From assembly GCA_030827475.1 (NCBI GenBank), contig JAUREJ010000003.1, forward strand, positions 6,648 to 70,647: DNA of 64,000 bases, in the 5' to 3' direction. The stretch is from Poseidonia sp. Its GTDB lineage: Archaea; Thermoplasmatota; Poseidoniia; Poseidoniales; Poseidoniaceae. The notes under the pieces were generated by a model. It did not search any database and was not told the DNA's origin. It saw only the letters and a program-made list of their open reading frames with translations. Every line of letters begins with the position of its first letter. Within the stretch, counting starts at the first letter, position 1. A program made the translations under genes and the position numbers. Positions 1,900-41,024 of the stretch are shown piece by piece.

Positions 1900-2014
1900 A
1901 GCCAACGAACACATGCTTTGGCGGGTTCGCCCCTAACCGGTTCAGTGTCGTTTGGCTCGCCAAGCCGTCTCGTCTTGGATGTGAAGGTCGTGGATGCTCT
2001 CTGCTTCCGAGGCT

Positions 2015-5232: not shown

Positions 5233-8200
5233 ATGGAAGAACATACGGAAACGACGGCAAATCAGCCCGGCGCCATCATGGGGTTGCTGCTCGCACCCTT
5301 GGCCGTGCTGCTTGCTCTTGCCACCACCCGAGTCGTGGGCATTGAATACGACTTGACATTGAACAACATGATGCCGATGCTCGTCGTCGCCATCGCCAGT
5401 ATGCTGGCTCTCGTGCCACGCATCGTTCAGGACGCTCGACCCGAATTCGCCTCTTCCACCCTTTCCCTCGGCGTGCTTGCAATCGCGTTCTTCGGTGCTG
5501 AGGTGCTCCACTCCTTCTTGGGCGTTGACGCTCTTGCTGCGCTGATGTTTGCTGTTCTTGTGGTTTTGGGGTCAAACTTTGACCGCCGTGGGCGCCACGA
5601 GTGGGTCGCCATGATGACCTTCTCTGGCGTTGGGTTTTGGCTCGCCCTCGCTGCGGCAGGGGATGCCCTCGCTGCGCTCCCCTCAACGTACACGATGGAG
5701 AGCGGCCAACTCGTCTCGACCATGAACCTTGAGCGTCAAGCCACGGCTTACGTCTTCTTTGCTTACTGGACGATGTTCACGGTCGTAGGCGTTTTGGCTG
5801 GCGTGCTCGCTCGAGGCACGGTCAACCCCGCAGGCGCTGAGGGCTGGTTTGCCTTCCTCGGCCAACACGACGGTTTCAACCGCGCCAACCTGCCGCTCGT
5901 CATCGCCCTCGTCGTTTGGGTGCTCGCCTTCGTTGGCTCCTTGTTCCACTTCAATTCGGTGGACACGATTGACCAGTTGGCCATCACCACCGAAGCAGGT
6001 TACCACGGCTACATCGGCTACTGGACGGCATTTTTGACCGGTTTAGTGGCTCTCATCGTCGCCGGCATGTGCGCCGAGCGATGGTACACCCGCGCCATGC
6101 TCGTGGGTTCCATGTGGGGACTTTACCAAGTCGCTGCTTGGTTTGAAGCCGGTATTTGGTACAACGAAGACATGGACGGCACATGGGGTGCGCTGATCTG
6201 GCTCGGTATCACGTTCTTTTTGGGCGTGGGCATTTACTCCATCGGCAACCACGAAAAGTACGGTGGATGGGCTAACCTTGGCGAGCACGAGCCCTCTCAG
6301 GCTCGCCTGTTCCTCCGGGCACACGGAGCGGGCTTGATGATCGCTCTTGCCTTCTTGGTCGGCCTTGCCATTCGAATTCAATGGTACGCCGTGCCCTCAA
6401 TGAACGCCTTCGGAACCGGAAACTGGGACATGACGGGGGGTTCGGACCCTTGGTACATGAAGCGCGTGGTTGATTACATCCTGGCAAACAACGCTCACTT
6501 GGTGTTCGATGCCGACCGATTCTATCCCATTGGCGGCATCAACCCTCGTCCCCCGCTCTTCTCATGGACCATGGCCATCGGTGCGATGTTCTTGGAGCCC
6601 TTCCTCAACACGCCTGAAGATGCTGTTTGGTGGAGCATGCTCGCTCTACCCGCTGTCTACGGTGCGCTGACCGTGTTCCCCATCGCCATCATCGCCAAAG
6701 ATCACTTTGGAAAGGGTGCAGGCGTCATCGCAGCATGGCTCATCGCCTTCATGCCCGCTCACGTCACCCACTCCACGTGGGCGCTCGCTGACCACGACTC
6801 CTTTGTGATGCTCTTCATCTCGGTCGGCTTCTTGTATTGGCTGCGTGCGGTGAAGTACGCTGGCTCGGCTCGAATTACAAAAGTCACCACGGCGCATCCA
6901 AAGTCCTTCTTCCAGGCTTACCTGGACGTGCTTGCACACCGTCAGGCAGCCGTCGCCAACGCCGTGCTCGCCGGTGTCGCCTTTGGTATCGTTTCCCTGG
7001 GTTGGAAAGGGTTCGTTGTTGGGCCATCGATTTTGTTCCTCGCCTATGCCTTGCAGGTGGCCTTGAACATGTTCCGCCGAAGAGATTCAACCACGCTGAG
7101 TGCGCTTTTCCTCACGATGCTTTTGACGACCTTCCTGATGGCACTGCCCTTCTACGGTCACCCGGAATTCGACTTGATTCTCAACCCCACCGGGCTGCAA
7201 CCCTTCCTGTTCATTTCCGGATTCACCCTGGCCATTGCCTTCGTGACCACCGGATTCCGTGACAAACCTTGGTTGCTCGTGCTGGGCACGCTGGTTGGAT
7301 TGGCCGCAGTCTTCTTCATTCTGCTGTACATCCTCAAGACATTGGAACTCTCAAACGCATGGGATGTCCTGTTCACGGGAAGCGGTTACTTCACGAAGAC
7401 CAAGATTTTCGGTACGGTTGCTGAAGCCAACGCTCCGAACCGAGCCCAACTCTTTGCTTCCTTCGGACCCATCACGTTCTTGCTTGCGCTCATCATCGGC
7501 GGCGGGCTGCTCTGGAAGGGTCTTCGATATCGCAAAGGCACGGAACTCGTGTTCGGTGTTTGGGTCTTCGCAGCCACCTTCATGGCTTGGAACGCTGCTC
7601 GGTTCATGTTCAACGCCACTCCCGTGATGGCCGTTCTCGGTGCTGCGGGTATCGTTGCACTTTGGCAGTGGGCCAACTGGAGCGGTTTGGTTCGTTCGTG
7701 GAAGAAATTCGGCATCCGAACCCCAGCTGACCGCATCACTGGCGCACGAAAGGCCGTTTGGCGGACGCCACAATTCTCGGCGATTTTCCTTGTCATGATC
7801 ATGATTTTCAGCCAACAAGCCACCTACGGCTTGGACTCTGCGATCCCCGGGACTTCGAACCAAGAGGGAGAAATCGACGAGCGAATCTACAACGTCGTCC
7901 CCGATATCCTGCGTTTTGATGCCCTAGGTTTCTCGGTGCTCGACAGCAGCAACTACGACGGTCGTTGGTACTTGGGCAGCTTTGGTTCTTCGTTCAACGA
8001 TAACGGTTGGAACGCGGCGTACGAATGGCTCGCCAACCAAGATACGGACATGAAGTATTCAGAAAAGCCGGCCTTCGTATCGTGGTGGGACTACGGTTTC
8101 CAAGCCATGAGCACCGGTGAGCACCCGTCGGTATCGGACAACTTCCAGTCCGGCATCCCGGCAACAGGGAACATGCTTTTGGCACGAAACCAAGATGACC

Positions 8201-11200
8201 TGACAGCGATGTTCATCTGGCAGCTTGCGGAAGGCGACCGTACCTACGCAACCACCGACAATTCGAACCACAAGTTCACGCCGACTTTCCAGAACACCGT
8301 GGACAAGTACCTCAACGACGCACAGATGGAGGACTTCGTGACGATGCAAACCACGTTTGACGAGACCATGATCGACTTCATTGAACTCCGTTCGTTCAGC
8401 GTCGTGAAGGCCAACCGAAACATCGTGATGGCGGAGGGACACCCCTCCACCGCCGGTGTCTTTGATGCTGACACCACGATTTACCGCATCTACAAAGACG
8501 GCGTTCCCCTCCCATGTACTGAGGAATTCTCCTCTTCCTGTTTGGGTGATGCTTGGTCGTCCATGAGCGAGGCCAACATCACGTTCACGAACAACATCCG
8601 CACACCGGACGAAACTGTCAATGGACGGACACACTCCATCTTTGGCGATTACTGGTACACGGCAGACCTCATCGATGAGTACCTTTCGGTCTCGACCAAC
8701 ATCCACCGAACGAACGCCCGATTGGCCATGATGACGCAACTCTTGACCGAAGCCTTTGATGCCCACCCAACCGCCACCATCCACGACCTCTACAACGACC
8801 TCATCGGCTTGGAGGGCCTTTACCGTGTTCAAGACTACGAAGGCAAACCCGGAGAGACCATTTCTCGTGACCACGAGATTCGGTATTTCGCCATCGATGA
8901 CCGACTCTACCCTCGCGCGGGGCGCTACACAGCTGACTCGAATTACAACCGTGGCCAACCGATGGGCATTTTCGGTGCCCCAACCATCCTTTCTGGACAA
9001 GACATCGGGACGTACATGGACGAGGTTTACGAGACCGTCCGCGGCGACTTCCAAGACGAGATGACGCGAGAAGAGGTTGACGAAGCCATGCAGAAGGATT
9101 TCCTTAACCAGCAAGCTGGGGCCGATATTGACCCGTTGCAGATTCAGGACGTCCGTGTTGATCACAACCCTGCCTTCTTCGACACGATGGTGGCTCGCAC
9201 CTACGTCGGCTACGGGGCTTCAACGCTCGGAATCAACACCGCAGCCAGCAACCCACAGCCGGCGCAACACTTCGGTCAGTCGGGTTCACCCGGCAGCGTT
9301 CTGGCAAACTCCTTGCCGCTGCCTGGAGCCATGATGAACCATTTCGTCATCTCCAACTGGTATTCGGAAGACGAAACGGTCAGCATTCAATCCACCAACA
9401 CCTTGGTGAAGATTCTGAAGTACTACCCCGGTGCAGAATTAACCGGTCAAGTGACGATGACCGATAACGGCGAGGGTCTGCCAGGCGTTCGCATCCTCAT
9501 TGAGCGCGATGCCTTCTCCGGCGAAGGCTCATCGGACAACGATGAGGACACCTATTGGATTCCCATTGGCTTTGTCGATGCGGATGACGATGGGAAGTAC
9601 AGTTTCCTCGCACCTGCTGGACGACTTCGCGTGACCGCCTTTGCCGGGGATTACGACCCAAGTGAGGCTCGTGACAACCTTCGAGACGGCTCGTATGCAG
9701 AACGATTGAGTGACATTTTGACCGACACCAACGACGACCGACAAATCAACGAAATCACGGCCATCCTCGGCCAAGTCGCCAACATGAGTTGGCTCGGAGA
9801 AGCCCAACTCAACGTGACGGCCGACCAAGCCAATCGCGTGGTGCCCATGGACCGGACCCTTGATGTCTCCATTGAGAGCAGCGGTGTGTCCGGTACCGTG
9901 ACCTGGAGCGGCGATGAAGCGTTCAACGGTGATCCGATTGCTGAAACCACGTTCATCCTCCGCAACATCTGGTCGATGACCGACAACTACACCGTCGTCA
10001 CCACCAGCGGTTCGTTTACTTCGGAGGAATCCCGTATTCTCCAAGGTACGGGCGAAGCAACGCTCACCGAGGACGGTTCATTTGACAGCGAAGGCATTGC
10101 ATTGGCCAAGAACTTCATCGGAGATTTCACGCGCGATATCGGAAACGAGCGTTCCTTCTTCGCCAACGGCACATGGAACGGAAACGGTTTGCTGGAAGCC
10201 TCATGGGTGGGCGTTGAGAACATCACTGCCTGTGAGGCCGACAACACCTCAAACGCCGTGATGCCCGCTAACGAGACGATTTGCGTTGTTGATGCAACCA
10301 CCACTCCACCAACCTACCGGTTGGAAGGAACGGTTGACGCTCAGGGGACCTTCACATCCGAGGGGACCTCCACGCTGACGCGTACCTATGGCGATGCAGA
10401 TGCAGGCCAGGGTGAAACGATTGAAGGCGCAGGTCTCTTTGAAGGGACGGGAACATTCAACGGGACCGGTCTGTTCATCGGTGTAGGAACCTTCTCTGGT
10501 CCGATGGTTGAACCCGGTTCTTTCTACAAGACCGGCTTGCTGCCCGGCACTTACAACATGATTGCACAGTTGGCCAACGGCAAGGAAGTACTCCTTCCTG
10601 ACCCCGTTGAAATCGGCGTTGTCCCCTCGTTTGATTTGCGCATGAACATGCCGGGAGCCATCTTCACCGACATCCTCTCCAACATGGTCGGCGACGGTTT
10701 GGCAAACACCACGATTGAACTGATTGACCGAGACCTTGGCGAGGACGCTGCAGTTTACATCGTAACGGATGAATTGGGTAACTTCTCCTACGGGCCCGTT
10801 GCAAAGGGCGACTACTACTACCGTGTGGACGTCGACGGAGACGGGTACTACGACCTCAACGAATCGGTCATGGTTCTCGATGACACGACCAACATCAGCC
10901 TTGCCATGGGTGTACCGGATACCGTCGATGTCACCATGACGTTGATCTCTCCCGTTGACCCGTTGACACAGGAACCGCTCTTCGATGTGTCAAACCGAAC
11001 CATTACCTTCGAAAACACTGAAGGAATTTTGCAACCGATGAACGTCACTTCGGACGAAAACGGGGAGCTCTCTATCGAGTTGCTTTACGGTGTTTGGGAT
11101 GTTCGAGATGACGCCAACCCGGACTTTGTTCTGTTTGACCAAGTTGACCTTTCACCAGGAACTGAAAACATTGTGAAGGACGTGACCTATGCTCAAGCCG

Positions 11201-14200
11201 CCTACATCAACGGTAGCCTCCGCTCCTATCCAGGGGTCACGGTCGAGGAATACGATGCATGGTTGGACGCAACGCTTGAGGAAGACAAGGTCAAGACCAC
11301 CGAACCTGCTTCAGCACTGACCGTGAACTTCGTATCAGGAACATTGGCATTCACAGCCGTGACCAACGTCTCGGGCGCCTTCTCCGTTCGCGTCCCCTCC
11401 GGATTGACCTACCACATGACGACCGAGAGCGTCATGGCGAACCGTGGGTACGGTGAATTGGTCGAAGTTGAATCCGGTGTTGATCTTGACCTCGGCCCTC
11501 TCTTCCTTGAACCTTCAACCGGTGTTTCGGGTGTCCTTTACCTCTACGACAACACCACTCGCTGGGATGCGACTCAACCGCTTTGGGAAGCGGTCGATGT
11601 GGTTGCCACCAACGAAGATGGATTGGAATGGCGAACAACTGTATCGGACACGGCGACGTTCTTCTTTGACCTTTTGGACGGGGATTGGGACTTGTCGGTT
11701 GACGACGAACGACTCAACGTCTCGGTGATCCAAGACGTCTCTGTCAACCATTCGCTCACGGAGACCCTTTCCACCATGGATTTGATCGCCAACCCAGAGG
11801 CCATTGAACTCACGTTCAACATCTACCTCGACGCCGGTGGAGATGGAATGCTTGAGAACGGAACGCTGGTCTCTCCAGATTTCCAACTGAAGCCCATTGA
11901 TGAAGACAAAGAAAGCCTGTACTTCACCGCCGATGATTACACCTCAAACGGGAATATCACCCTGGCCTTGACGCCAGGTGGGTATGACCTCGTGTTCAAT
12001 CGAACCACGGCCGAGTCCGAGAATGCATCCGACTTTGATTTGATTGGTGTCCAATTCTTCGACGCCATCGTCGTAGGACTTGATGCCATTGACGAACCCT
12101 TTGATGTTGCTCTGAAGAACACCTATCTCGTGAATGGAACGCTAACGAACAGCACCGGTGACGGAATTGCGAACGATTTCCTGCTCTACAACGAAGCTGA
12201 AGACCAATGGTTCAACATCGGTTCGGACGAGAACGGCAGCTTTGCCGCTTACGTTCCCGCAGGCGAATGGCTCGCCATCGTTGCGCCCTTCTCAAACGGG
12301 AACGAGACCGAAACCCTTCGCTCGCCAATCTCTGTGCAACACGATTCTGCACGGCTTGACCTTGCGCTGACCACTGAAGTCAGTGTTGAGGTGACCCTTC
12401 AGTTGATGGCATGGTTGACCAACGAGACCCTCGCCGACATGACGGTGACGGCTGTGAGTCAAGACGGCTACGGCAACATCACCTTTGACCGAACCGATGC
12501 AAACGGGAACGCAACCGAGATGATGATGCCGGGGACGTGGAGTCTCTACCTCAATCGGACCGTTGGCACACAATCTTGGTTCTTGGACACGAGTGACGCA
12601 CCGTTTACCACGGCTGACGCGGTCAACAACAGCCTTGTTCTTGGCCCCGTCTACGCAGAACTCGAAGTCGAAATCGGCGGGAAAGTGTACTGGGATCTTG
12701 ACAACAACAGCCTTCCAAGTTTGGGCGAAGGGATTTCTGAGTTCAACATCACGTTACAAGGCGTGAACCATTCGGATGTCAGCATTGACACGGTGACCGA
12801 CAGCGAAGGTGTTTGGCGTGCATTTGTTCCCATCAGAGACGTGTACAACGTGACGGTCGCCAAGGAAGGCTTCGAAACGGTCTACTACGCGACCGAAAAC
12901 GAATCTGGATATGCAGTGTACGACAGTCCGGACTCGCGTGACATCGAAGTCACGGCGGGTTCTGTTGATGTGTTCGGTTACGTGACCGACCAGTTGGATG
13001 CCCAACGCCTCATTGACGCTACCATCGTCCTTTACCCTGTTGCGGGCGTTGAACGTGACCCGGTCTCCTTGGACGGCACGATGAACGGTACAACCCTTGA
13101 ATGGTCGGCGAGCATTCAGCCCGGTGACTGGGTCGTTGTTGTTCGTGAAGCTGATCCCGGGCAGAACGGTGGCGGTGTAGCCATCGGCCTCTTGGAGGCC
13201 ACCGTATCCAACGGAGGTAACCTCTCCTTGGTCATGGCCCTTGGCGGTTATGTCGACCTCTCCACGGCTTGGGCAGATATTGAACAAAACGAACACCACG
13301 CCGGTGCAGACGGTGCTGGAGGAAGCATGATTCAAGATGATGTTGAACTCGAAGTGACCTTTGAGGAGATGAGCTGGATTCTATCCTTGCCATCTTCAGG
13401 CAAGTTCGAGAAACTCCTCTTCCCGGAAGGTACAATCGCCTTTGACAGTGAATTTACCACGGTCCAGCACGAGCGACAATTGGAAATGGAATACTTCGGT
13501 GGGCAGACCACTTCGGTGGCTGCGGATTCGTCCATCTCTGCAACCCTCAACTACAACCGACGGGTCAACTCCAACTTGGACGTGAACTTTGTTGAATCCT
13601 CAGTCGGAAGCTCGGCGACGGTGCTTGATGTTGAGGACGTTGAGCTCGAAGCGATTGTCTCGTCCGGCAACGCATCAATTTTCAACACCATCACGTTTGA
13701 CTACACGGTTGACTACAACGGTACAGAAATCGTCGATGTTTTCACCGTGAGCGGTGAATTGGGTCTCGCACAAGACTCCGAGGATTGGACCGTTCAAATC
13801 TGGAACAGCACCAGCTTAGCCTACGAAGACAGCGTTGAAATCGTGCTTGGAATCGGTGATAACGAAACTGAAGCCGCACTGACGACCACGGTTCGTGTCC
13901 AAGTGACCCTTCCCGATGTTGGCGATGCTTGGAGCCTTGAAAACGGGCACCGAGTCACCGTCCGCATGAAGACTGATCTGGGCGAATCAACCCAAGTCTC
14001 TGCGAAAATCTTCGTACCTCAGACCTACGCCTTCAGCATCTCCGATGCGACCGAAGAACTCGGCATGTCTGCGCTTGTTGAGCGCCGTTTCTCCTTTGAC
14101 ATCACCAACGACGGAAACGGACAAGACACGTTCACCATTGAACTCTTGGAAAGCGGTATTCTCGAAGGTTGGTCCATTACCCCAATGACCTCCACGCTGA

Positions 14201-14808
14201 CGTTGAGCAAGGGCGAGACCCGAACCCAACAGTTCACGGTGTTTGCTCCCGAATCTTTTTCCGAGGGTTCATTTGATTTGACCGTCTACGTCAACAGTCT
14301 TGACGAAACGGTCGCACAGCAGACGGTTGTTGTCAACGTGCAGGCTGCCGTGATCAAGTTGGTCGTCGACGAAGGGGCCATCGTGGTCAATTCCGACTCC
14401 AATGCGAACCAAGCCGGCAGCGTACGTGTGCCCGTGAGCAACAACGGCTTCTTGGACGCACCATCGGTTCTCGTCTATATTGAGCCTACATCGCCGGCGA
14501 GCCAACCAGAGCGCTCGGTGACCATCAACGTCCCCGCCGGGGAAACCGTTGAGGCGGTGTTCGATGACATGACCTTCACGCAGGGCAACCAGCGATTCAA
14601 CATCCGTGTTGAGGTTGCAGGTGCTGAAACAAGCAGCGTTGAATCCATCTCGTTGCCTGCCGGTGGGACCTTCTCCTTGGAGTACTACACCCAGAGTGAT
14701 ACCGAAGGCGAGTCCATTTGGACGACGCTTCTAATCATCGTTTTGCTTGTTCTCGTGGTCGTTGGCGGCGTGAAAGTCAGTCGTGGTGGCCGTAGAGGCA
14801 AGTTCTGA
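5233..14808 (+). CDS. aglB: giant (3191 aa) AglB/STT3-type oligosaccharyltransferase: multi-TM core with EL1 acidic motif (DPWYMKRVVDY, about nt 6445) and the WWDYG catalytic signature (nt 8083..8097, aa 951-955). Preceded by about 350 aa of extra TM helices and followed by about 2200 aa of acidic beta-rich extracellular sequence that ends in a C-terminal TM helix (LLIIVLLVLVVVGG + RGGRRGKF)
   Basis: Uninterrupted ORF. WWDYG is diagnostic of STT3/AglB/PglB. Many hydrophobic helices lie before it, and the DxxK motif TVDKYLN follows it. Confidence 0.8.
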   Translation: MEEHTETTANQPGAIMGLLLAPLAVLLALATTRVVGIEYDLTLNNMMPMLVVAIASMLALVPRIVQDARPEFASSTLSLGVLAIAFFGAEVLHSFLGVDALAALMFAVLVVLGSNFDRRGRHEWVAMMTFSGVGFWLALAAAGDALAALPSTYTMESGQLVSTMNLERQATAYVFFAYWTMFTVVGVLAGVLARGTVNPAGAEGWFAFLGQHDGFNRANLPLVIALVVWVLAFVGSLFHFNSVDTIDQLAITTEAGYHGYIGYWTAFLTGLVALIVAGMCAERWYTRAMLVGSMWGLYQVAAWFEAGIWYNEDMDGTWGALIWLGITFFLGVGIYSIGNHEKYGGWANLGEHEPSQARLFLRAHGAGLMIALAFLVGLAIRIQWYAVPSMNAFGTGNWDMTGGSDPWYMKRVVDYILANNAHLVFDADRFYPIGGINPRPPLFSWTMAIGAMFLEPFLNTPEDAVWWSMLALPAVYGALTVFPIAIIAKDHFGKGAGVIAAWLIAFMPAHVTHSTWALADHDSFVMLFISVGFLYWLRAVKYAGSARITKVTTAHPKSFFQAYLDVLAHRQAAVANAVLAGVAFGIVSLGWKGFVVGPSILFLAYALQVALNMFRRRDSTTLSALFLTMLLTTFLMALPFYGHPEFDLILNPTGLQPFLFISGFTLAIAFVTTGFRDKPWLLVLGTLVGLAAVFFILLYILKTLELSNAWDVLFTGSGYFTKTKIFGTVAEANAPNRAQLFASFGPITFLLALIIGGGLLWKGLRYRKGTELVFGVWVFAATFMAWNAARFMFNATPVMAVLGAAGIVALWQWANWSGLVRSWKKFGIRTPADRITGARKAVWRTPQFSAIFLVMIMIFSQQATYGLDSAIPGTSNQEGEIDERIYNVVPDILRFDALGFSVLDSSNYDGRWYLGSFGSSFNDNGWNAAYEWLANQDTDMKYSEKPAFVSWWDYGFQAMSTGEHPSVSDNFQSGIPATGNMLLARNQDDLTAMFIWQLAEGDRTYATTDNSNHKFTPTFQNTVDKYLNDAQMEDFVTMQTTFDETMIDFIELRSFSVVKANRNIVMAEGHPSTAGVFDADTTIYRIYKDGVPLPCTEEFSSSCLGDAWSSMSEANITFTNNIRTPDETVNGRTHSIFGDYWYTADLIDEYLSVSTNIHRTNARLAMMTQLLTEAFDAHPTATIHDLYNDLIGLEGLYRVQDYEGKPGETISRDHEIRYFAIDDRLYPRAGRYTADSNYNRGQPMGIFGAPTILSGQDIGTYMDEVYETVRGDFQDEMTREEVDEAMQKDFLNQQAGADIDPLQIQDVRVDHNPAFFDTMVARTYVGYGASTLGINTAASNPQPAQHFGQSGSPGSVLANSLPLPGAMMNHFVISNWYSEDETVSIQSTNTLVKILKYYPGAELTGQVTMTDNGEGLPGVRILIERDAFSGEGSSDNDEDTYWIPIGFVDADDDGKYSFLAPAGRLRVTAFAGDYDPSEARDNLRDGSYAERLSDILTDTNDDRQINEITAILGQVANMSWLGEAQLNVTADQANRVVPMDRTLDVSIESSGVSGTVTWSGDEAFNGDPIAETTFILRNIWSMTDNYTVVTTSGSFTSEESRILQGTGEATLTEDGSFDSEGIALAKNFIGDFTRDIGNERSFFANGTWNGNGLLEASWVGVENITACEADNTSNAVMPANETICVVDATTTPPTYRLEGTVDAQGTFTSEGTSTLTRTYGDADAGQGETIEGAGLFEGTGTFNGTGLFIGVGTFSGPMVEPGSFYKTGLLPGTYNMIAQLANGKEVLLPDPVEIGVVPSFDLRMNMPGAIFTDILSNMVGDGLANTTIELIDRDLGEDAAVYIVTDELGNFSYGPVAKGDYYYRVDVDGDGYYDLNESVMVLDDTTNISLAMGVPDTVDVTMTLISPVDPLTQEPLFDVSNRTITFENTEGILQPMNVTSDENGELSIELLYGVWDVRDDANPDFVLFDQVDLSPGTENIVKDVTYAQAAYINGSLRSYPGVTVEEYDAWLDATLEEDKVKTTEPASALTVNFVSGTLAFTAVTNVSGAFSVRVPSGLTYHMTTESVMANRGYGELVEVESGVDLDLGPLFLEPSTGVSGVLYLYDNTTRWDATQPLWEAVDVVATNEDGLEWRTTVSDTATFFFDLLDGDWDLSVDDERLNVSVIQDVSVNHSLTETLSTMDLIANPEAIELTFNIYLDAGGDGMLENGTLVSPDFQLKPIDEDKESLYFTADDYTSNGNITLALTPGGYDLVFNRTTAESENASDFDLIGVQFFDAIVVGLDAIDEPFDVALKNTYLVNGTLTNSTGDGIANDFLLYNEAEDQWFNIGSDENGSFAAYVPAGEWLAIVAPFSNGNETETLRSPISVQHDSARLDLALTTEVSVEVTLQLMAWLTNETLADMTVTAVSQDGYGNITFDRTDANGNATEMMMPGTWSLYLNRTVGTQSWFLDTSDAPFTTADAVNNSLVLGPVYAELEVEIGGKVYWDLDNNSLPSLGEGISEFNITLQGVNHSDVSIDTVTDSEGVWRAFVPIRDVYNVTVAKEGFETVYYATENESGYAVYDSPDSRDIEVTAGSVDVFGYVTDQLDAQRLIDATIVLYPVAGVERDPVSLDGTMNGTTLEWSASIQPGDWVVVVREADPGQNGGGVAIGLLEATVSNGGNLSLVMALGGYVDLSTAWADIEQNEHHAGADGAGGSMIQDDVELEVTFEEMSWILSLPSSGKFEKLLFPEGTIAFDSEFTTVQHERQLEMEYFGGQTTSVAADSSISATLNYNRRVNSNLDVNFVESSVGSSATVLDVEDVELEAIVSSGNASIFNTITFDYTVDYNGTEIVDVFTVSGELGLAQDSEDWTVQIWNSTSLAYEDSVEIVLGIGDNETEAALTTTVRVQVTLPDVGDAWSLENGHRVTVRMKTDLGESTQVSAKIFVPQTYAFSISDATEELGMSALVERRFSFDITNDGNGQDTFTIELLESGILEGWSITPMTSTLTLSKGETRTQQFTVFAPESFSEGSFDLTVYVNSLDETVAQQTVVVNVQAAVIKLVVDEGAIVVNSDSNANQAGSVRVPVSNNGFLDAPSVLVYIEPTSPASQPERSVTINVPAGETVEAVFDDMTFTQGNQRFNIRVEVAGAETSSVESISLPAGGTFSLEYYTQSDTEGESIWTTLLIIVLLVLVVVGGVKVSRGGRRGKF

Positions 14809-14861: not shown

Positions 14862-16073
14862 ATGGAGGGTCTGCGGGACGTCGAGTACCTGCCTGAACCC
14901 AGCGACAGGAGCATTGTTTCCGCTGTCGACCCGACCGTTATCGGCTTTCAGGACGAATGGCGCTCAGAGATCATGGGCTGGGCACCCTTCCCGGTCGAAC
15001 CCGTGGTGCGGACCCGACGACGACAACGTTCCTTGGGTGGGTTGGTGGTGTTCGCTCTGCTCGTTTCTGCAAGCCTCGTGCTTTGGCAGAATCAATGGGT
15101 TGTAGTTGAACTTCCGCTCCCAAATTCCGAATGGGCCTTCGCTGATTCTGGGATTCGCTCTCTCCAAGAATCAGGGTTGACGGGCGAGGATGTTCGCGTC
15201 TGCATGGTGGACACGGGGATCGACCTGTCGCATCAGGCGTTCTTTGGAAAAGAAATCGTCTTCAAGGACTTCATTGGCGGTTCAACAACACCGGTTGACT
15301 ACGGTGCGGTCGCGCACGGCACGCTAATGGCGGGTTTGATGATCGCCACCGGCCATCAGACCGGTTCAGCACCAAACGTGACGTTTGCCATGGCGGCCGC
15401 TCTTCAAGACAACGGTGAAGGAGAAAACACCGGCTTTGACAGCGATGTGGCAGATGCCATCCGCTGGTGCCAGTTTGATTTTGAAGCGGACATCATCTCC
15501 TTGTCTTTGGGAGGGACTGAGCGGGCACAAAACGCTGATGAAGGCTCTTCTGCGGCTGCAACGCGACAAGCTACGGACGCCGGGGTCTATGTGGTCGCTG
15601 CTGCGGGCAACGACGGACTGTCAGATGACGGGGACGTCGCCTCACCTGGCAGTGTGCGTCTTGCGATTTCAGTGGGGGCGACAACACAATCCGGTTTACT
15701 TTGGGAAAACTCTTCTGCCGGGGCACGGGAAGACGCCGAAGCCAACCCCCGCGCATCGCCTCACGAAAAACCCGAAATCGTCGCACCCGGTCATCGCATC
15801 ATCAGTACAGGTGAAAGTGACCTCTGGTATTCAAGCAGCGGAACCTCTGACTCCACCGTTTTCGTTGCCGGTGCTTTGGCGCTTATCCTCGAGGCTCAAC
15901 CCAACCTCAAGCCGTCCGTATCCCAGGACGCGTCGTGCATTGAGCGGGTGAAACTCGCTTTGGCTCAATCCGCACAACCGTTGTCAAACGAAAGGCACGA
16001 TGCCCGGGGAGGGTACGGCTTCCTCGATGCGGCTGGATGGTTGGCTCAAATCGGTGCTGTTTCGGAGTGCTGA
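14862..16073 (+). CDS. subtilisin-like serine protease (peptidase S8) with N-terminal signal-anchor/Tat-like RRRQRSL + hydrophobic segment and no recognisable I9 propeptide
   Basis: Catalytic triad contexts VCMVDTGID (Asp), HGTLMAGL (His), SGTSDSTVFVAGA (Ser); alternative start at 14973 (MGWAPF). Confidence 0.85.
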   Translation: MEGLRDVEYLPEPSDRSIVSAVDPTVIGFQDEWRSEIMGWAPFPVEPVVRTRRRQRSLGGLVVFALLVSASLVLWQNQWVVVELPLPNSEWAFADSGIRSLQESGLTGEDVRVCMVDTGIDLSHQAFFGKEIVFKDFIGGSTTPVDYGAVAHGTLMAGLMIATGHQTGSAPNVTFAMAAALQDNGEGENTGFDSDVADAIRWCQFDFEADIISLSLGGTERAQNADEGSSAAATRQATDAGVYVVAAAGNDGLSDDGDVASPGSVRLAISVGATTQSGLLWENSSAGAREDAEANPRASPHEKPEIVAPGHRIISTGESDLWYSSSGTSDSTVFVAGALALILEAQPNLKPSVSQDASCIERVKLALAQSAQPLSNERHDARGGYGFLDAAGWLAQIGAVSEC

Positions 16074-16107
16074 GGGCTCTTTTCACCCCAAAATCGGCCA
16101 CCGAAGG

Positions 16108-16122
16108 GTTCCGTTTTTGTTC
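16108..16122 (+). terminator. oligo-T tract (CCGTTTTTGTTCACC) about 35 nt downstream of the S8 protease stop; candidate archaeal terminator
   Basis: T5 run after the stop. Confidence 0.35.
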
Positions 16123-16230
16123 ACCGTTCTCCGCTTTAGAGTCATTTTACGGAAGTATATTCCCTGAAAAGGGTAAATGAAATGATATTCTTACGTCATT
16201 ATGATACGGTAAGAGCGGCGATTGAGGCGC

Positions 16231-16243
16231 AGTATTATATTCG
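16231..16243 (+). promoter_or_regulatory. TATA-box-like element (AGTATTATATTCG) in an AT-rich island (16120..16260) about 35-45 nt upstream of the giant beta-helix protein start
   Basis: Strong local AT bias in an otherwise 58% GC sequence. Confidence 0.4.
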
Positions 16244-16275
16244 TGGCGTTCATGGAGGGATTAGGTGCATCTGTC

Positions 16276-19200
16276 ATGTCACGCCGAAAGCAAGCAAAAT
16301 CTCTGTCGCTCGTCCTTCTCTACATGGTCTCCATCATGGTGGGGATGGTCAGCCTTCCAACGGTGATGGCCAACAACGAAACAACCCAAGGCACCGTCAC
16401 CGGTGTCGAAACATGGTCTGGAACCATGAACCTTCAAGGAGATGTTGAGGTCGCTGAAGGTGCGAAACTCATCATCAATGCCGGGACCACCGTGAACATT
16501 CCCTTCGGGAAGTTCATTGACGTCAAAGGTGCCATTTGTGTTGGTGATTCCGCCTGCGGCGCCAGTGCAGGTTCAGCATCCTCCAAGGCACGCTTCATGT
16601 GGTCTCTCCCCACCGATTACACCAAGATTGGTCGTTGTTATGTCAACGGATCGAGCACCTTCACCAACGGGGACGCAGCCTGTGGGTCCGGTTTGGTGAT
16701 TCGTGACACGATTGACCAGTCCATCACTTCCATCAACTTCGCTCACTTTGAGAACGCTTACGGCTACCCCATCTACGTGCAAACGCTCCAGGCCGTTCAG
16801 TACGGTGCATTGGTGTTTGATGGCTCAAGCACCACGGCACGTGGACTCTCGTTTACCGACATCAACACCTCAAACGTTATTGCGATTGATTTCGCATCCC
16901 CAACCATCTCCGAGTCCACGTTTGAACTCGGCGTTGACGGTCGAGGGTACGATGCCGCTGCTGTCCGCGCCTACGGCGCAGGTGCCGGTATTCTCGCCAC
17001 GTTTGAAGTCAAGGATTCCAGTTTTACAGGCAACGATGCTGACTGTGGCCAGCAGGGCGGAGGTCGTGCCGTCCTCTTCATCGAAGATTCGTACATTGAC
17101 ATGGACAACCTCGACATCTCACAAAACTCCTATGGCGTTTTGATGAAGTCAAGCTCCGGCTCGCTCACAAATTCTGTGATTGATGTCAAGTGCAACGCAA
17201 TCGACACGAACTCGTTGAAGACAACGGGTACGATCGACCACACCCTCACCATCACCAACAACGTCATCACCACGGCCGAAGGTGCTGGTTTGACGGCCTA
17301 CGACGGTGCCAAAGTGTACGCTGAGCGGAACACCATCTCGGGGGCTTCGGAAGGTTCTGGTGTCGGTATTCGTTCCTCGGTCGTGGAACTCCACAACAAC
17401 ATCATCGGCCCCGTTGGTGGCTGGAACGGCTTGTGGATTTACGGGACCTCTGATGTGGTCGCCGAAAACAACACCATTCAGGACACGGGTAAAGAGCCCG
17501 TCCTCATCGGTGAGTACCACTATCAGGATTCAGGCTGGCAGGTGCCTGCACCAAGTGCTGCCCGTCTCTACCTCGCGAACAACGTGATCTCAAACAACTC
17601 CGGGACGTGCAACTCTCAGATGTACGGCGGTGACTTCCCTTGCCCTGCCGTGCACGTGTTCCGTTCATCAGCCAGCATTCTTGACAACACCATCTCCGGA
17701 AACAACGGTGACATCATCCGTGCCAAGGGTTCGCTTGTGAACGTCCAGCGCAACACCGCTGACAGCCAAGGTGGATTTGCGGGCAACATCAGCCTTCACG
17801 ATGACAATTACGGAAACAAGTACGGTTCTGTTGCTTATTTCTCTGGCAACACCTGGACCGGCGTTTCCCAAGTGTACAACATCACTGAATCCCGCGTGAC
17901 CGTTCAGTCTGAACAAATTCCATCGCCGGGCTTCAACGAATCTTACCCTGTCAACATTCGTTGGCTCGGTGCCGAGTGCCCATATGTTCAGGACGAGTGC
18001 TTGAAACTGCCCGACACCGTTGCTCTCCCCCCCGCACAGATGCCTTTGGCTCTCGAACTCGTAGAAAACGCAACGGTGTTCTCTTTCGCTGACCTGCAAA
18101 ACTTTGATTCATCGATGATCCATGTTCAAAACCAAAACACTGCTTGGGGCTCCCAAGTCCGGGAAGGTGAACTTGTCCAGTACCAGGTTAAAGCCAAGAA
18201 CTCCAACGTTGCAGGTGCAACGGTCGTCATCAAGGACGCAACGGGTCTGCCACTTTACGAATTGACAACCGACGCTCTCGGTTACACACAAGAGGTGTCT
18301 CTCCCCTCCGACTTCCTTCTGGACCGAAACTGGAATCACATCGTGGGTGATAAGAACGCTGCAATCCCCGGAACGAACGACGGAACGGGACAACCCATCG
18401 TCGTTGACGAGGATTCTTGCGCCGACGGCATTGACAACGACGGCGATACTTACGTTGACGATTTTGACGTTTCCTCCGGTGCAGGTGACACCTCAAACTG
18501 CGAGAGCGGCAACCGTGAGATGCCGTTTTACACGGTTGAAGCCTTCAAGTTTGGAAGCGGTACCAAAGAACTCTCCTACGTGTTGAGCGGTCCGGTGAAC
18601 GACGTCATCAACCTTGACAACCTCCGTCCTGGGGTGACGGTGAATCAGCAAGACGGCACGTCGTTTGCGACGACCGTTCGTCTGACAGGCCAAGCCTGGG
18701 ACGGTGCGAAATGGCCATACGCCAACGACAACACCGCCGTTCAATCGCAATTTGGAAAGATTCAGCGCGTTGAGATTCAGCCGCCGGGTTCAACCGACTG
18801 GTACACTGCCTCCGATACTTCCGGCTCGGGCGGCGAAATCACGATGGCAAACCACCCGTTCAAGGACTGGGTTTTCGACTGGGACATGTCTGCTCACCCT
18901 GAGGGCGAGGGCGACGTGACGTTCCGCATCCGGTCCTTCGATGGCTTGGATTATTCACCGGTCGAGGTCCGTCAGTACAAGCTCAACTTGGTCGCTCCCA
19001 CGATTTTGGTGGATGTTCCGACCACGGGAAGCACCTTCAACAACGGCAAAGTGCTTTTCCAAGGTACGGCATCTGACCCTTACCAGGGCACCTACGGCAG
19101 CGACGTGAAACAAATCTGGTTCCATATTTCCGGCGAGGGTGGATTCGAGCAGCAATTCTTCCAGGCTGGGTCGACGAGTTGGTCCTATGAATGGGACGTT

Positions 19201-20697
19201 GGCGACCTCCCAAGCGGCGACTACACCGTTACCATCTGGGCTGCTGACAGCGACTTATGTATTGACAACAACACCGGTTGCCAAGTTGAAGTTCGGACCA
19301 TCACCATCAACAACGAAAACCTCCGGCCGAATCTTCAATTATCTTGGATTGGTGCAGCAGACCAGTCCTCAGGCGGTATTGATGGCGACACCGTTCGTGC
19401 ATCAACTGAAACGAAGATTGTCGGCGTGGCCCGTGACGTTGGTGGCTTTGTGACTCGTGTTGAAATCGAAATCACCGACCTCGCCAACGGACTGGTGCTT
19501 AACGATGGGCCACTTCCGGTCACTTCGTTCAACGCTGACGGTTCATGGGTTGCCAACTGGGACACCTCTGACCTCGTTCACGACCGTGTGTATTCCGTGA
19601 CGGTTCGGGCTTACGACGGCGATGATTACTCGGACGACATCGTTTGGAGAATGACCATCAACAACCCACTTGATGCAGAAAATATTGATCCCGTGTTCAA
19701 CGAAACCGGCTGGGTGGGTACATGGACCATTTTCTGCGATGAAAATTCCAACTCCTTCGACCGCTGCGGTGGCGGTGTGACGTTTGACCTCGGTAATTTC
19801 TTTTCGGACCCCGATGGAACAGGGACCCCAGCCAACGACCTGGAATTCTACATCTACGATGACCCAGCAACCATTGAAGACGACATGTACTTCGATTTCA
19901 TCCGAATTTCCGCTGATGGATTGCTCACTTACGATCCGGTTTCCATGATGAGTGTCACCAGCAACATCCCCGATTGGTCCTTGAACGCCGTGGTGATCTA
20001 TGCTCAAGACGATCAAGAATCAAAGGCATATTCACTCAAAGTGAACTTCCTCGTCCGCGGGGTCTCCTTCAGCGTTGAGCGCGCCGACTCCGGCGCCATC
20101 ACCGTGAACGACCCCGCTACGTTCCGAGGGACAGGACTTCCCGGAAGCACGGTGAACCTTCGCTTCGCAGATGGAAACTCCCTCCTAAACAGCACGAAGG
20201 TTCTCTCCGACGGAACGTGGAGCATGGACCTCTCAGCCAGCCAACTCGGTATTGAAGGTAAGTCGGCGGTTGTCTTTGAAATGGACGATCAATACTTCAG
20301 GTTCTCCGGTCAATCCCAAACCGAAAAAGGCGAATTCAGTATTTCGGTTGCGGGGGCCGATGATGGCGGTTCGGGTGTCCTCGGTATCGTTCTTATCGTT
20401 CTCGCAGTTTTGGTGCTTCTCGGTGCAGCTGCGTTCTTCTTCATCGAATTTGAGGAAGTGGTTGACGAAGCCGAGTTGACCGGCGATGACGCCCAAGAAG
20501 CGGAGGACCCTTATGCTTGGGCCAAAGCCAAGCAAACGCCAAGTCTGCCTGAACAGGCCCATGCGCCTATGGAAACTGCTCAAGCCGTTGCAGAAATCGC
20601 TGCACCCGCCGCTGCCTCCCAACATCCAGGGTGGCTGTGGGACGAAGCCACGAACCAGTGGGTCCCTGACCCGAACTACCAGCAACCGCAACAGTGA
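16276..20697 (+). CDS. giant secreted cell-surface protein with right-handed parallel beta-helix (NosD/pectin-lyase-like) repeats, Asp-rich Ca-binding-like segment (DGIDNDGDTYVDDFD), C-terminal TM helix and short Pro/Trp-containing cytoplasmic tail
   Basis: ORF track 16222..20697; signal peptide MSRRKQAKSLSLVLLYMVSIMVGMVSLPTVMA starts at 16276; repeated motifs NNVITTAEGAGL, RNTISGASEGSGVGI, HNNIIG; C-terminal GIVLIVLAVLVLLGAAAFFFIEF. Confidence 0.8.
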   Translation: MSRRKQAKSLSLVLLYMVSIMVGMVSLPTVMANNETTQGTVTGVETWSGTMNLQGDVEVAEGAKLIINAGTTVNIPFGKFIDVKGAICVGDSACGASAGSASSKARFMWSLPTDYTKIGRCYVNGSSTFTNGDAACGSGLVIRDTIDQSITSINFAHFENAYGYPIYVQTLQAVQYGALVFDGSSTTARGLSFTDINTSNVIAIDFASPTISESTFELGVDGRGYDAAAVRAYGAGAGILATFEVKDSSFTGNDADCGQQGGGRAVLFIEDSYIDMDNLDISQNSYGVLMKSSSGSLTNSVIDVKCNAIDTNSLKTTGTIDHTLTITNNVITTAEGAGLTAYDGAKVYAERNTISGASEGSGVGIRSSVVELHNNIIGPVGGWNGLWIYGTSDVVAENNTIQDTGKEPVLIGEYHYQDSGWQVPAPSAARLYLANNVISNNSGTCNSQMYGGDFPCPAVHVFRSSASILDNTISGNNGDIIRAKGSLVNVQRNTADSQGGFAGNISLHDDNYGNKYGSVAYFSGNTWTGVSQVYNITESRVTVQSEQIPSPGFNESYPVNIRWLGAECPYVQDECLKLPDTVALPPAQMPLALELVENATVFSFADLQNFDSSMIHVQNQNTAWGSQVREGELVQYQVKAKNSNVAGATVVIKDATGLPLYELTTDALGYTQEVSLPSDFLLDRNWNHIVGDKNAAIPGTNDGTGQPIVVDEDSCADGIDNDGDTYVDDFDVSSGAGDTSNCESGNREMPFYTVEAFKFGSGTKELSYVLSGPVNDVINLDNLRPGVTVNQQDGTSFATTVRLTGQAWDGAKWPYANDNTAVQSQFGKIQRVEIQPPGSTDWYTASDTSGSGGEITMANHPFKDWVFDWDMSAHPEGEGDVTFRIRSFDGLDYSPVEVRQYKLNLVAPTILVDVPTTGSTFNNGKVLFQGTASDPYQGTYGSDVKQIWFHISGEGGFEQQFFQAGSTSWSYEWDVGDLPSGDYTVTIWAADSDLCIDNNTGCQVEVRTITINNENLRPNLQLSWIGAADQSSGGIDGDTVRASTETKIVGVARDVGGFVTRVEIEITDLANGLVLNDGPLPVTSFNADGSWVANWDTSDLVHDRVYSVTVRAYDGDDYSDDIVWRMTINNPLDAENIDPVFNETGWVGTWTIFCDENSNSFDRCGGGVTFDLGNFFSDPDGTGTPANDLEFYIYDDPATIEDDMYFDFIRISADGLLTYDPVSMMSVTSNIPDWSLNAVVIYAQDDQESKAYSLKVNFLVRGVSFSVERADSGAITVNDPATFRGTGLPGSTVNLRFADGNSLLNSTKVLSDGTWSMDLSASQLGIEGKSAVVFEMDDQYFRFSGQSQTEKGEFSISVAGADDGGSGVLGIVLIVLAVLVLLGAAAFFFIEFEEVVDEAELTGDDAQEAEDPYAWAKAKQTPSLPEQAHAPMETAQAVAEIAAPAAASQHPGWLWDEATNQWVPDPNYQQPQQ

Positions 20698-20722
20698 CGG
20701 GCTAACGAGCGAGGGAATTTTG

Positions 20723-23248: not shown

Positions 23249-23255
23249 TTCAGCT

Positions 23256-23735
23256 TCATTGAACCGCTGCAGGCCGGTCGAGCGAGAGGAACGTGACGCC
23301 GTCTTCGTGAACCACCCAAAGCCGTTCCACGCCAGAGAGAGGAATGCGCCCCTCATGGACACCAGCGCCTGTTCCTGACAACGCTGTCGAGGTGTCAAGC
23401 GGTCCACCTTCATCGATGAGCAGAAGAGAAGTGTTCGTGAGTTCAAGCCAAAACAAGGATTCGTCCGCTTCCGTTGGCCGCCAACTGACCGCCTCGGCGT
23501 AGGATATGTTCCCGCCAAGCCGGCTTGACTCATCTGCGCGCTCAACAGCGGCGGCGATGTCTTCCATGTTGGCTTGGATTGCCTCTTCGTTCCATCGCAA
23601 TCGGGTGTTGGTTTCAATGTCCCACGCCCAAACGCTGAACATGGACATCAAAAGGACCCCAAGAAGGAAGGTGAAAATGTAGCCCAACTCCGTGGCCGCA
23701 GCCCGGGTGTCGGCTCGAATGCTCGTGGACCTCAT
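23256..23735 (-). CDS. small archaeal type IV pilin-like protein (class III signal peptide-like N-terminus TRAAATELGYIFTFLLGVLLMSMF)
   Basis: N-terminal basic residue, small residue, then a 20+ aa hydrophobic stretch; start overlaps the stop of the upstream gene (23732..23735). Confidence 0.6.
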   Translation of the reverse strand: MRSTSIRADTRAAATELGYIFTFLLGVLLMSMFSVWAWDIETNTRLRWNEEAIQANMEDIAAAVERADESSRLGGNISYAEAVSWRPTEADESLFWLELTNTSLLLIDEGGPLDTSTALSGTGAGVHEGRIPLSGVERLWVVHEDGVTFLSLDRPAAVQ

Positions 23736-27048: not shown

Positions 27049-27056
27049 TTAGCCAT

Positions 27057-27890: not shown

Positions 27891-28077
27891 GCGAACAACT
27901 CGGAGCGGTCGCGGAGGATTCTTGAACACACCGACAGAACCTGACGGTATCGGATGTTTTGGCGGACTTTCGCACGACGTCAAGGTGTGCGTGTATGAAC
28001 AATGTTCCATCACCCTCATAAGCAATCTGAGCAAGGTATTCTTTGAGCGAAGCGTATGCTTTGCAGCAGGCGAGAAC

Positions 28078-40938: not shown

Positions 40939-41024
40939 GGCCCGTGGTCGTCGTGCTCATTTGTGAACTTGGCGCAAGGAAGCGGGGGGATTGGATGAAA
41001 AACCCCTGCCTTGATGGCCTTTCA

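Follow-up and report, generated by a model that had tools for sequence, protein, structure and literature searches.

Introduction

Among the enzymes dedicated to N-glycosylation in archaea, only AglB is shared with eukaryotes and bacteria. To our knowledge, characterised AglBs are roughly 600-1,050 aa long. AglB-L of Archaeoglobus fulgidus (PDB 3WAJ, 3WAK, 5GMY and 7E9S) and the other AglB, PglB and STT3 proteins, all with the GT-C fold and grouped in family GT66, are built on a core of 13 transmembrane (TM) helices followed by an external C-terminal domain. The protein analysed here, encoded by an archaeon of the genus Poseidonia (marine group IIa), has the same two parts, and AglB-L is its best match in both sequence and fold. 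The solved AglB-L chain, however, has 875 residues against 3191, and identity between the two is only 16-18%. Furthermore, the known AglB, PglB and STT3 proteins are without three elements of the Poseidonia protein: a 10-TM N-terminal domain, a stalk of ~1,760 aa and a C-terminal membrane anchor. A search of the literature on archaeal AglB, STT3 and oligosaccharyltransferase (OST) in Thermoplasmatota and marine group II (MGII) returned no description of such a giant AglB.

Results

A giant uninterrupted reading frame

The window, a 64,000-nt stretch of a Poseidonia sp. contig, contains a gene composed of the following parts:

5233..14808 (+), giant aglB open reading frame
5233..6291 (+), N-terminal extension, aa 1-353, with ten TM helices and a short external beta-hairpin (aa 153-162)
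6292..7842 (+), STT3/AglB core of glycosyltransferase-C type with 13 TM helices, aa 354-870
7843..9432 (+), extracellular AglB C-terminal domain, aa 871-1400, sequon-poor
9433..14712 (+), acidic, sequon-rich stalk, aa 1401-3160
14713..14805 (+), TM anchor at the C-terminus (aa 3162-3180) and basic cytoplasmic tail whose last residue is an invariant Phe

A first-pass annotation of this DNA had described a single unbroken frame, and the sequence bears this out: translation runs from an ATG to the stop through 3191 aa without any internal stop codon. Homologues align at 48-99% identity over 100% of the length. An open frame of 3166-3245 codons was found in 56 of 58 complete loci, which come from different Poseidoniales species and independent MAGs, and in each of the 80 related loci the tblastn segments of the protein adjoin without a change of frame. 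These comparisons leave no frameshift or stop near nt 6290 or nt 8500, the two places where one had been suspected. The start codon is supported by the conservation of M1 and the MEE N-terminus in homologues.

The STT3/AglB core and its catalytic motifs

Comparisons by Pfam, NCBIfam, phmmer, Foldseek and profile alignment place an STT3 core between aa 354 and aa 870. Pfam STT3 (PF02516) matches aa 392-654 with 46.0 bits for a cut-off of 24.5, the test that the first-pass annotation had proposed. The chain of 3WAJ is matched with an E-value of 2.9e-8 in phmmer. The best NCBIfam model, TIGR04154 (archaeo_STT3), aligns with aa 369-1035, although its score of 169.5 bits falls far short of the curated cut-off of 450. 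Hydropathy peaks of the core extend from aa 364 to 860, and the profile alignment between the two classes of giant AglB defined below begins at aa 354. The AF2 model of aa 1-1200, made with 30 homologues, was poor (pLDDT 60, pTM 0.41, and pLDDT below 40 around aa 859-983) and its sole use was to check that STT3 matches dominate: the best 12 Foldseek matches to it are all STT3/AglB proteins, with E-values from 5e-7 to 4e-3.

The catalytic motifs of the giant AglB align with those of 3WAJ and are invariant across 30-58 sequences:

6445..6447 (+), D405, catalytic acidic residue of external loop EL1 in GGSDPWY; counterpart of D47 in A. fulgidus AglB-L (GGNDPWY) by alignment; invariant
6790..6798 (+), D520-H521-D522 (LADHDS), second divalent-cation motif; aligns with A. 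fulgidus D161-H162-H163 (FNDHH); invariant
7414..7425 (+), T728-V-A-E731, TIXE motif (external loop 5); counterpart of TIAE in A. fulgidus by alignment; T728 and E731 invariant
8083..8097 (+), W951-W-D-Y-G955, catalytic and sequon-binding motif; invariant in homologues

Both signatures on which the original assignment was based, WWDYG and the acidic EL1 motif, were thus recovered. The former, at aa 951-955, is the sole such motif in the six frames of the window, and all 240 Poseidoniales proteins carry GGxDPWY. Visual inspection did not reveal the Ser/Thr-pocket motif, DxxKxxx(M/I) or MxxIxxx(I/V/W) (the DK/MI motif), at aa 985-1070, a region in which the AF2 model is too poor to help. The AglB C-terminal domain, searched for as AglB_core (PF22627), does produce a match at aa 947-986, but a weak one. 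Apart from those of the Ser/Thr pocket, the residues that bind metal, lipid-linked donor and sequon in the solved AglB, PglB and STT3 proteins appear to be all present and invariant. By these sequence criteria the protein is a member of the STT3/AglB/PglB oligosaccharyltransferase family (PF02516, CAZy GT66), and it would be expected to be a working enzyme. The core is also the best conserved part of the polypeptide, with values of 0.78-0.86 against 0.50-0.64 for the stalk.

A ten-helix N-terminal extension

The additional N-terminal helices, put at about 350 aa when the frame was first read, appear as 9-10 hydropathy peaks between aa 13 and 337 and as 10 helices by AF2 prediction. Invariant positions in the extension include E123, R194, E282, W284, W323, F328 and G344, and conserved Glu and Arg residues are predicted to lie within the membrane. 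No fold could be assigned to the domain; in particular, a search for the UbiA/isoprenoid-synthase alpha-helical fold, by fold match and Asp-rich DxxxD motifs, did not identify it as such. An origin of the extension by duplication of the STT3 TM domain within the protein was rejected on the basis of an hhalign probability of 0.2.

An acidic, sequon-rich stalk

The claim of ~2200 aa of acidic extracellular sequence agrees with the composition of aa 881-3150, whose net charge is about -256. The first part of this region, the AglB C-terminal domain (aa 871-1400), has a conservation of 0.81-0.86 per 100-aa block and contains, at aa 1200-1400, a stretch of very high conservation (RDHEIRYFAIDxRLYP...GIFGAPTILSG), whose YFAID motif is found also in fragments from outside the Poseidoniales (class B, below). 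The stalk that follows comprises a conserved region with Cys residues (aa ~1400-1760), tandem repeats of ~90-100 aa with beta-sandwich-type Pfam matches (aa ~1760-2580, from self-hhalign) and a choice-of-anchor-T-like stretch (aa ~2916-3027, NCBIfam choice_anch_T). Conservation is poor over its distal ~1,400 aa, which have a repeat-like character. No domain count was obtained from a single-domain hhalign probe or from regular expressions, self-alignment alone being informative. The Pfam matches are to CarboxypepD_reg (three) and to a NOMO1-like domain (PF22902), the latter at aa 1823-1872 with a score below the gathering threshold (18.8 versus 27 bits); searching six sub-segments of the protein at E<=1 yielded weak extra matches only. 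PF22902 and PF22904 are precomputed in many homologues, and CARDB matches occur in homologues as well. The Pfam and repeat signals suggest that the stalk is of beta-sandwich nature.

NOMO (nodal modulator) is a type-I membrane protein of the ER with a rod of Ig-like domains (PMC8327139). It resembles the stalk in its string of prealbumin/Ig-like domains, its single TM helix at one end and its location on that side of a glycosylating membrane which faces away from the cytoplasm. It differs in not being fused to STT3, and the subthreshold match implies no orthology.

The stalk contains 43 N-X-S/T sequons where 17.3 are expected (z=7), while the catalytic ectodomain has 1 for 4.8 expected. The same partition is seen in the medians, in sequons per 100 aa, of the Poseidoniales proteins (2.29 in the stalk versus 0.50 in the catalytic ectodomain) and of their relatives elsewhere in the phylum (2.26 versus 0.67). 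This enrichment, which speaks of potential and not of occupancy, suggests that the stalk may be N-glycosylated. Acidity, abundance of sequons, beta-sandwich-type matches and a C-terminal anchor (TM or PGF-CTERM) are likewise traits of the archaeal S-layer and surface glycoproteins. Those proteins, however, are separate, Sec-secreted substrates of AglB, whereas the module described here is covalently part of the enzyme.

Topology and the C-terminal anchor

A C-terminal anchor had been proposed as well, and a TM segment does occupy aa 3162-3180, followed by the tail KVSRGGRRGKF. The same TM and a final Phe are each present in 237 of 240 Poseidoniales proteins. The protein is predicted to span the membrane 24 times: ten helices in the N-terminal domain, thirteen in the STT3 core and one in the C-terminal anchor. 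The predicted topology of the core is supported by the even number (10) of helices preceding it and by the positive-inside count (8 K/R on inside loops versus 0 outside), and the basic character of the C-tail agrees with the topology of the whole. In this model the N-terminus and the C-tail both face the cytoplasm and all residues from aa ~871 to 3160 lie outside; the ectodomain would therefore form a closed loop, held to the membrane at either end.

No PGF-CTERM motif is present at the C-terminus of the window protein (...ESIWTTLLIIVLLVLVVVGGVKVSRGGRRGKF) or in any of the 240 Poseidoniales proteins. In contrast to the best NCBIfam model, TIGR04154, which describes an oligosaccharyl transferase associated with the archaeosortase A system, the window protein ends in a plain TM anchor and basic tail. 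A PGF-CTERM-like end, as in archaeosortase-A substrates, was found in 23 of 201 relatives lacking the N-terminal extension.

Distribution

The form with the N-terminal extension (class A) is represented by 240 protein clusters of 3109-3338 aa, drawn from NCBI, ENA, JGI, Logan and TARA. This architecture is present in every Poseidoniales genome sampled (124 species genomes), and the N-terminal extension is specific to this class. A second form without the extension (class B; 2,010-3,027 aa, n=201) is found in MAGs of Methanomassiliicoccales, Thermoplasmata and Thermoplasmatota (e.g. MFA5772382.1 and MEM3237739.1). The profiles of the two classes are collinear over 2,171 columns (E 2e-204). Class B shares with the window protein homology from the STT3 core through the end of the stalk, a C-terminal TM with basic tail and an equal enrichment in sequons; it differs in having neither the 10-TM domain nor the invariant C-terminal Phe. 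Since the two profiles are collinear over this length, the stalk extension would be ancestral to Thermoplasmatota, and the 10-TM domain may have been gained in the Poseidoniales lineage.

These findings place the polypeptide far above the size of characterised AglBs, as first proposed. The accompanying suggestion of a new architecture holds insofar as the architecture is real and no paper on it was found; it is not a one-off, being present in all Poseidoniales sampled and, as class B, widespread beyond them. Database entries bear names such as 'STT3 domain-containing protein', 'glycosyltransferase family 39 protein' and 'dolichyl-phosphooligosaccharide-protein glycotransferase'. Transcription of an MGII aglB in situ has been documented (PMC9723583, main text and supplementary file 6).

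Conserved neighbours

Two genes on the same strand follow the giant aglB:

14862..16073 (+), membrane-anchored S8 subtilase, 403 aa (Pfam Peptidase_S8, N-terminal TM); conserved neighbour
16222..20697 (+), beta-helix and Ig-domain surface protein, 1491 aa, with a C-terminal TM; conserved neighbour

The subtilase gene begins 53 nt downstream and is found at this position wherever related loci extend past the 3' end of the giant gene, and also in a distant clade (42% identity). The gene for the surface protein is syntenic in the related loci and in the distant clade too.

Discussion

We propose that the gene probably encodes a working AglB with a built-in N-glycosylated stalk, similar to an S-layer glycoprotein and anchored at both ends. 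The Poseidonia enzyme would move a lipid-linked glycan to the Asn of N-X-S/T sequons on the outside of the membrane. An acidic stalk or arch could be formed by the C-terminal ~1,760 residues and would itself receive many N-glycans, either in cis or from neighbouring copies, much as an S-layer or surface glycoprotein does. Such a stalk might build part of the glycosylated envelope around the catalytic site, or else space and position the enzyme beneath that envelope. That the protein is built into the cell envelope, as already put forward in the first-pass annotation, is plausible; a structural role there is conjecture.

The syntenic subtilase brings to mind a different fate, in which the giant chain serves as a precursor and a protease, such as this one, cuts it into an AglB of normal size and a separate, C-terminally anchored surface glycoprotein. 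The fusion would then only couple synthesis and stoichiometry. The short distance between the genes, the persistence of the pair in the distant clade and a P/Q/G/S-rich stretch at the AglB/stalk boundary (aa ~1340-1385) are in keeping with such processing. On the other hand, this candidate linker is strongly conserved, unlike a variable spacer, the fusion is intact phylum-wide in both classes, no cleavage site or processed form of a giant AglB is known, and conserved synteny is not proof of a substrate relationship. On balance, we consider processing unlikely.

We rank somewhat lower, as doubtful, the idea that the extension is an analogue of accessory subunits, capturing nascent secreted chains or binding glycans and thereby raising the efficiency of glycosylation, as the lumenal subunits of eukaryotic OST, a lectin or a chaperone would. 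Eukaryotic OST does add lumenal subunits to STT3, and aa 1200-1760 of the giant AglB are conserved like the enzyme core (0.66-0.86), with near-invariant Cys pairs. Against this, no match in sequence or fold to an OST accessory subunit or a lectin was obtained with Pfam or NCBIfam, and the low conservation and repeat-like character of the distal part are more in line with a spacer or stalk than with a site of binding.

A bolder extension of the proposed stalk-bearing enzyme, and a longer shot than either of the foregoing alternatives, is that the enzyme forms a single polypeptide with its main substrate. In this view the stalk would serve as the principal envelope glycoprotein (glycocalyx or S-layer-like) of MGII archaea and of many Thermoplasmatota, glycosylated in cis as it emerges, and the Poseidoniales-specific 10-TM domain would deal with the polyprenyl-phosphate carrier, flipping or recycling lipid-linked glycan. 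If this were true, enzyme, stalk and 10-TM domain would together make a single-chain 'glycosylation and envelope-building machine'.

The decoy option raised at first, an inactive or purely structural protein merely keeping an STT3-derived membrane anchor, has in its favour only the unusual size and the subthreshold TIGR04154 score, and it is very improbable because none of the sequences examined departs from D405, D520/H521/D522, T728/E731 or WWDYG, and because the core is the most conserved region of the protein. Finally, nothing but the prior improbability of a 9.6-kb gene speaks for an assembly or sequencing artefact fusing a normal AglB with its neighbours through a missed stop or frameshift, a reading we reject as already refuted by the frame kept open in independent MAGs of different species, the full-length clusters from five data sources and the collinear homology across the proposed junctions.

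As a probable working enzyme carrying its own stalk, the giant AglB alters the picture of the forms that an OST can take. An order of very abundant planktonic archaea encodes AglB as a 3.2-kaa, predicted 24-TM protein, and much of Thermoplasmatota makes it as a 2-3-kaa protein whose sequon-rich stalk is anchored at both ends. The finding draws attention to a conserved 10-TM domain attached to an enzyme that acts on lipid-linked glycans and suggests candidate envelope components for uncultured lineages. The giant AglB may also offer a natural system for the physical coupling of glycosylation to the construction of the cell envelope.

Identity and integrity of the giant AglB gene

The gene under study is open from its ATG to its stop codon:

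5233-14808, + strand, giant AglB ORF, 3191 aa, zero internal stops

WWDYG occurs once across all frames of the 64-kb window, at aa 951-955 (nt 8083-8097). The protein matches the Pfam STT3 family, PF02516, at aa 392-654 (46.0 bits, above the gathering score of 24.5) and the NCBIfam model TIGR04154 ('archaeo_STT3') at aa 369-1035 (169.5 bits, under the 450-bit subfamily cut-off). Among solved structures, Archaeoglobus fulgidus AglB-L (3WAJ) is the closest in sequence (E 2.9e-8). In the alignment of the two proteins, D405 (GGSDPWY) corresponds to D47, D520-H521-D522 to D161-H162-H163, T728-V-A-E731 to TIAE (the TIXE motif) and WWDYG to WWDYG. Foldseek, queried with an AF2 model of aa 1-1200 that had low confidence, listed STT3/AglB chains in all of places 1-12. 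Thus, the first-pass annotation, which had reported WWDYG and the EL1 acidic motif in one uninterrupted frame, was correct in every particular as an observation, and we are highly confident that the giant AglB is a genuine STT3-family protein encoded by a single gene.

A word-indexed search of clusters drawn from NCBI, ENA, JGI, Logan and TARA recovered more than 120 clusters of 3109-3227 aa with 48-99% identity and 100% coverage, two truncated entries excepted. Scanning one genome per species revealed a relative in 124 genomes, from which 80 related loci were kept for comparison; nearly all carry the label Poseidonia, Poseidoniaceae, Poseidoniales or a corresponding MGII name. The highest identity to the window's gene is 97%, which assigns the window to a Poseidonia (marine group IIa) genome. 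The tblastn pieces (N-extension, core and two stalk halves) were contiguous and in frame in every related locus, and 56 of the 58 loci holding the whole gene had an open frame of 3166-3245 codons. These results exclude the frameshifts or stops suspected near nt 6290 and nt 8500. Conservation of M1 and the MEE N-terminus among homologues supports the start codon. One contig with a giant aglB of 85% identity in full Poseidoniales synteny (L006, NZEQ01000036.1) was deposited as 'Verrucomicrobiales bacterium isolate ARS100' and is probably mis-binned.

Membrane topology and the N-terminal domain

By hydropathy, 9-10 additional hydrophobic segments lie within aa 13-337, and the STT3 TM block spans aa 364-860. 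Nothing between aa 860 and aa 3160 is convincing as a TM segment; a strong one occurs at the C-terminus (aa 3162-3180), with KVSRGGRRGKF after it. The AF2 model of aa 1-350 (pLDDT 75.9, pTM 0.77) contains ten helices and a small hairpin. In the external part, aa 881-1400 carry a net charge of about -41 and aa 1401-3150 one of about -215. The extra N-terminal helices, acidic extracellular sequence and C-terminal anchor of the initial description were all borne out. Since the helix count of the extension is even, the canonical STT3 topology (N-terminus inside, C-terminal domain outside) would be kept. Moreover, all eight loop Lys/Arg residues of the N-terminal domain lie on the predicted cytoplasmic side, with 0 outside. 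The resulting prediction is a 24-TM protein whose aa ~871-3160 lie outside the cell, held to the membrane at either end.

The N-terminal domain gave zero Pfam matches even at E<=1 and nothing in Foldseek (best E 0.19), and Asp-rich motifs are absent from it. Its origin as a duplicated STT3 TM block was ruled out. Identity in this domain between two Poseidoniales clades is 16-25%; that E123, R168, R194, E282, W284, E305, W323, F328 and G344 are nonetheless invariant or nearly so suggests a functional site as opposed to inert helices.

Two classes of giant AglB

An exhaustive phmmer search of 1.84 billion cluster representatives, with aa 1-1200 as the query, yielded 767 matches of two architectures, class A being Poseidoniales proteins with the 10-TM extension and class B homologues without it.

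Giant AglB proteins collected
Class A: 240 proteins; 3109-3338 aa; N-terminal extension present; WWDYG at aa ~900-1000; C-terminal TM in 237/240; PGF-CTERM-like end in 0/240
Class B: 201 proteins; 2010-3027 aa; N-terminal extension absent; WWDYG at aa ~565-840; C-terminal TM in 181/201; PGF-CTERM-like end in 23/201

A second large clade within class A, just 38-45% identical to the query, is labelled 'Candidatus Poseidoniales archaeon' (UniRef name 'dolichyl-phosphooligosaccharide-protein glycotransferase, uncultured marine group II/III euryarchaeote'). NCBI lists class B proteins under Methanomassiliicoccales, Thermoplasmata or Thermoplasmatota archaeon; their PGF-CTERM-like ending consists of PGF(E/D), a hydrophobic helix and RRRR. 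In a profile-profile comparison the two classes are collinear (2,171 columns, E 2e-204), aa 354-3066 of class A matching aa 16-2390 of class B. Judged by this collinearity, the stalk (aa 1401-3160) is an ancient part of Thermoplasmatota AglB, and the Poseidoniales form is, on the same sequence grounds, that ancestral protein with a 10-TM domain added at its N-terminus.

In some class B proteins (P0188, P0220, P0222 and P0237), 13-18 hydrophobic segments come before WWDYG, which lies at aa ~785-820; this is a hint of intermediate stages, or of separate gains of N-terminal TM helices, beyond Poseidoniales. Of the 240 class A proteins, 237 end in Phe after a basic tail (PF 118, RF 69, KF 50; window nt 14713-14805); class B proteins end mostly in R or K.

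The catalytic residues did not vary in either of two alignments, one of 30 sequences and one of 58. The STT3 core and adjoining ectodomain are the best conserved parts (mean column conservation 0.78-0.86 versus 0.50-0.64 in the distal stalk), and GGxDPWY is present in 240/240 class A proteins. These findings argue against the protein being a decoy, an option raised in the first-pass annotation. Two points qualify this: no DK or MI motif was recognised, and the AF2 model is unreliable around aa 859-983. In a field metatranscriptome, an MGII aglB is reported among the genes enriched when genus O1 was active (log2 fold change 2.05; gene length not stated there; PMC9723583).

The external stalk

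Pfam matches in the external part comprise three CarboxypepD_reg domains and weak NOMO1-like and AglB_core matches; a choice-of-anchor-T-like stretch lies at aa 2916-3027, and profile self-comparison showed tandem repeats of ~90-100 aa from aa ~1760 to ~2580. Within aa 1401-3150 there are 43 N-X-S/T sequons, where shuffles predict 17.3 (z=7; 0/2000 as high); aa 881-1400 hold 1, with 4.8 expected. This contrast between stalk and catalytic ectodomain was present in 29/29 homologues examined, with median sequons per 100 aa of 2.29 versus 0.50 in class A and 2.26 versus 0.67 in class B. An acidic, repeat-rich, sequon-rich and C-terminally anchored sequence is the signature of archaeal S-layer/surface glycoproteins, and in some class B lineages the anchor is a PGF-CTERM signal, as in surface glycoproteins. 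The stalk, we infer from these features, is a surface module bearing N-glycans. NOMO, an ER membrane protein, forms a rod of Ig-like domains and sets ER sheet spacing (PMC8327139); its likeness to the stalk is by analogy only, with weak NOMO-like Pfam matches here and in many homologues.

Genomic neighbourhood

Wherever the 80 loci reach far enough, they share one gene order: CARDB protein (-), PurD, giant AglB, membrane-anchored S8 subtilase, ~1,450-aa beta-helix surface protein. In a distant clade (42% identity) this order is kept including the STAND ATPase-TPR, metallo-beta-lactamase-fold (-) and ~1,900-aa proteins. The adjoining subtilase gene motivates the main rival reading, in which the giant AglB is a precursor that is then cleaved; we consider this improbable. 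Other features of the neighbourhood are as follows:

14862-23248 and 27057-33828, conserved block 3' of aglB (19621-29513 in related locus L081); its ~1,450-aa protein has beta-helix/Big_7 and a C-terminal TM, and its last protein is ~1,900-2,000 aa in both Poseidoniales clades
20486-20697, overlap of about 210 nt between the listed start of a 920-aa STAND/TPR ORF and the end of a 1491-aa ORF; the true start is probably further downstream
23732-27048, - strand, adjacent ORFs of 744 and 361 aa with weak N-terminal DUF7289 matches under gathering score
27847-33828, + strand, giant ORF, 1993 aa, essentially without Pfam match, sequon-enriched (28 versus 15.1 expected, z=3.7)
33891-39338, + strand, giant ORF, 1815 aa, essentially without Pfam match
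40944-42101, + strand, 385-aa ORF, an unusual fusion of pyroglutamyl peptidase (Peptidase_C15) and NUDIX domains
42613-43674, + strand, GT2-family glycosyltransferase, 353 aa, about 28 kb downstream of aglB; possibly a dolichyl-phosphate sugar synthase of the same pathway

Interpretation

Neither full-text literature searches nor a 2024 review on N-glycosylation in archaea gave a description of this architecture. In that respect the earlier proposal of a new architecture stands; the decoy option is not supported. The architecture is no singleton (two classes were collected), and the sequences were already public. What holds of that interpretation is an STT3/AglB within one giant anchored polypeptide. 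We favour, with reasonable confidence, the reading that this AglB is active, that its glycosylated surface stalk is ancestral and anchored at both ends, and that the 10-TM domain at its N-terminus is specific to the lineage. Such a protein would both carry out glycosylation and supply the envelope with a glycosylated arch. The enzyme family itself is familiar; the architecture is phylum-wide and apparently undescribed.
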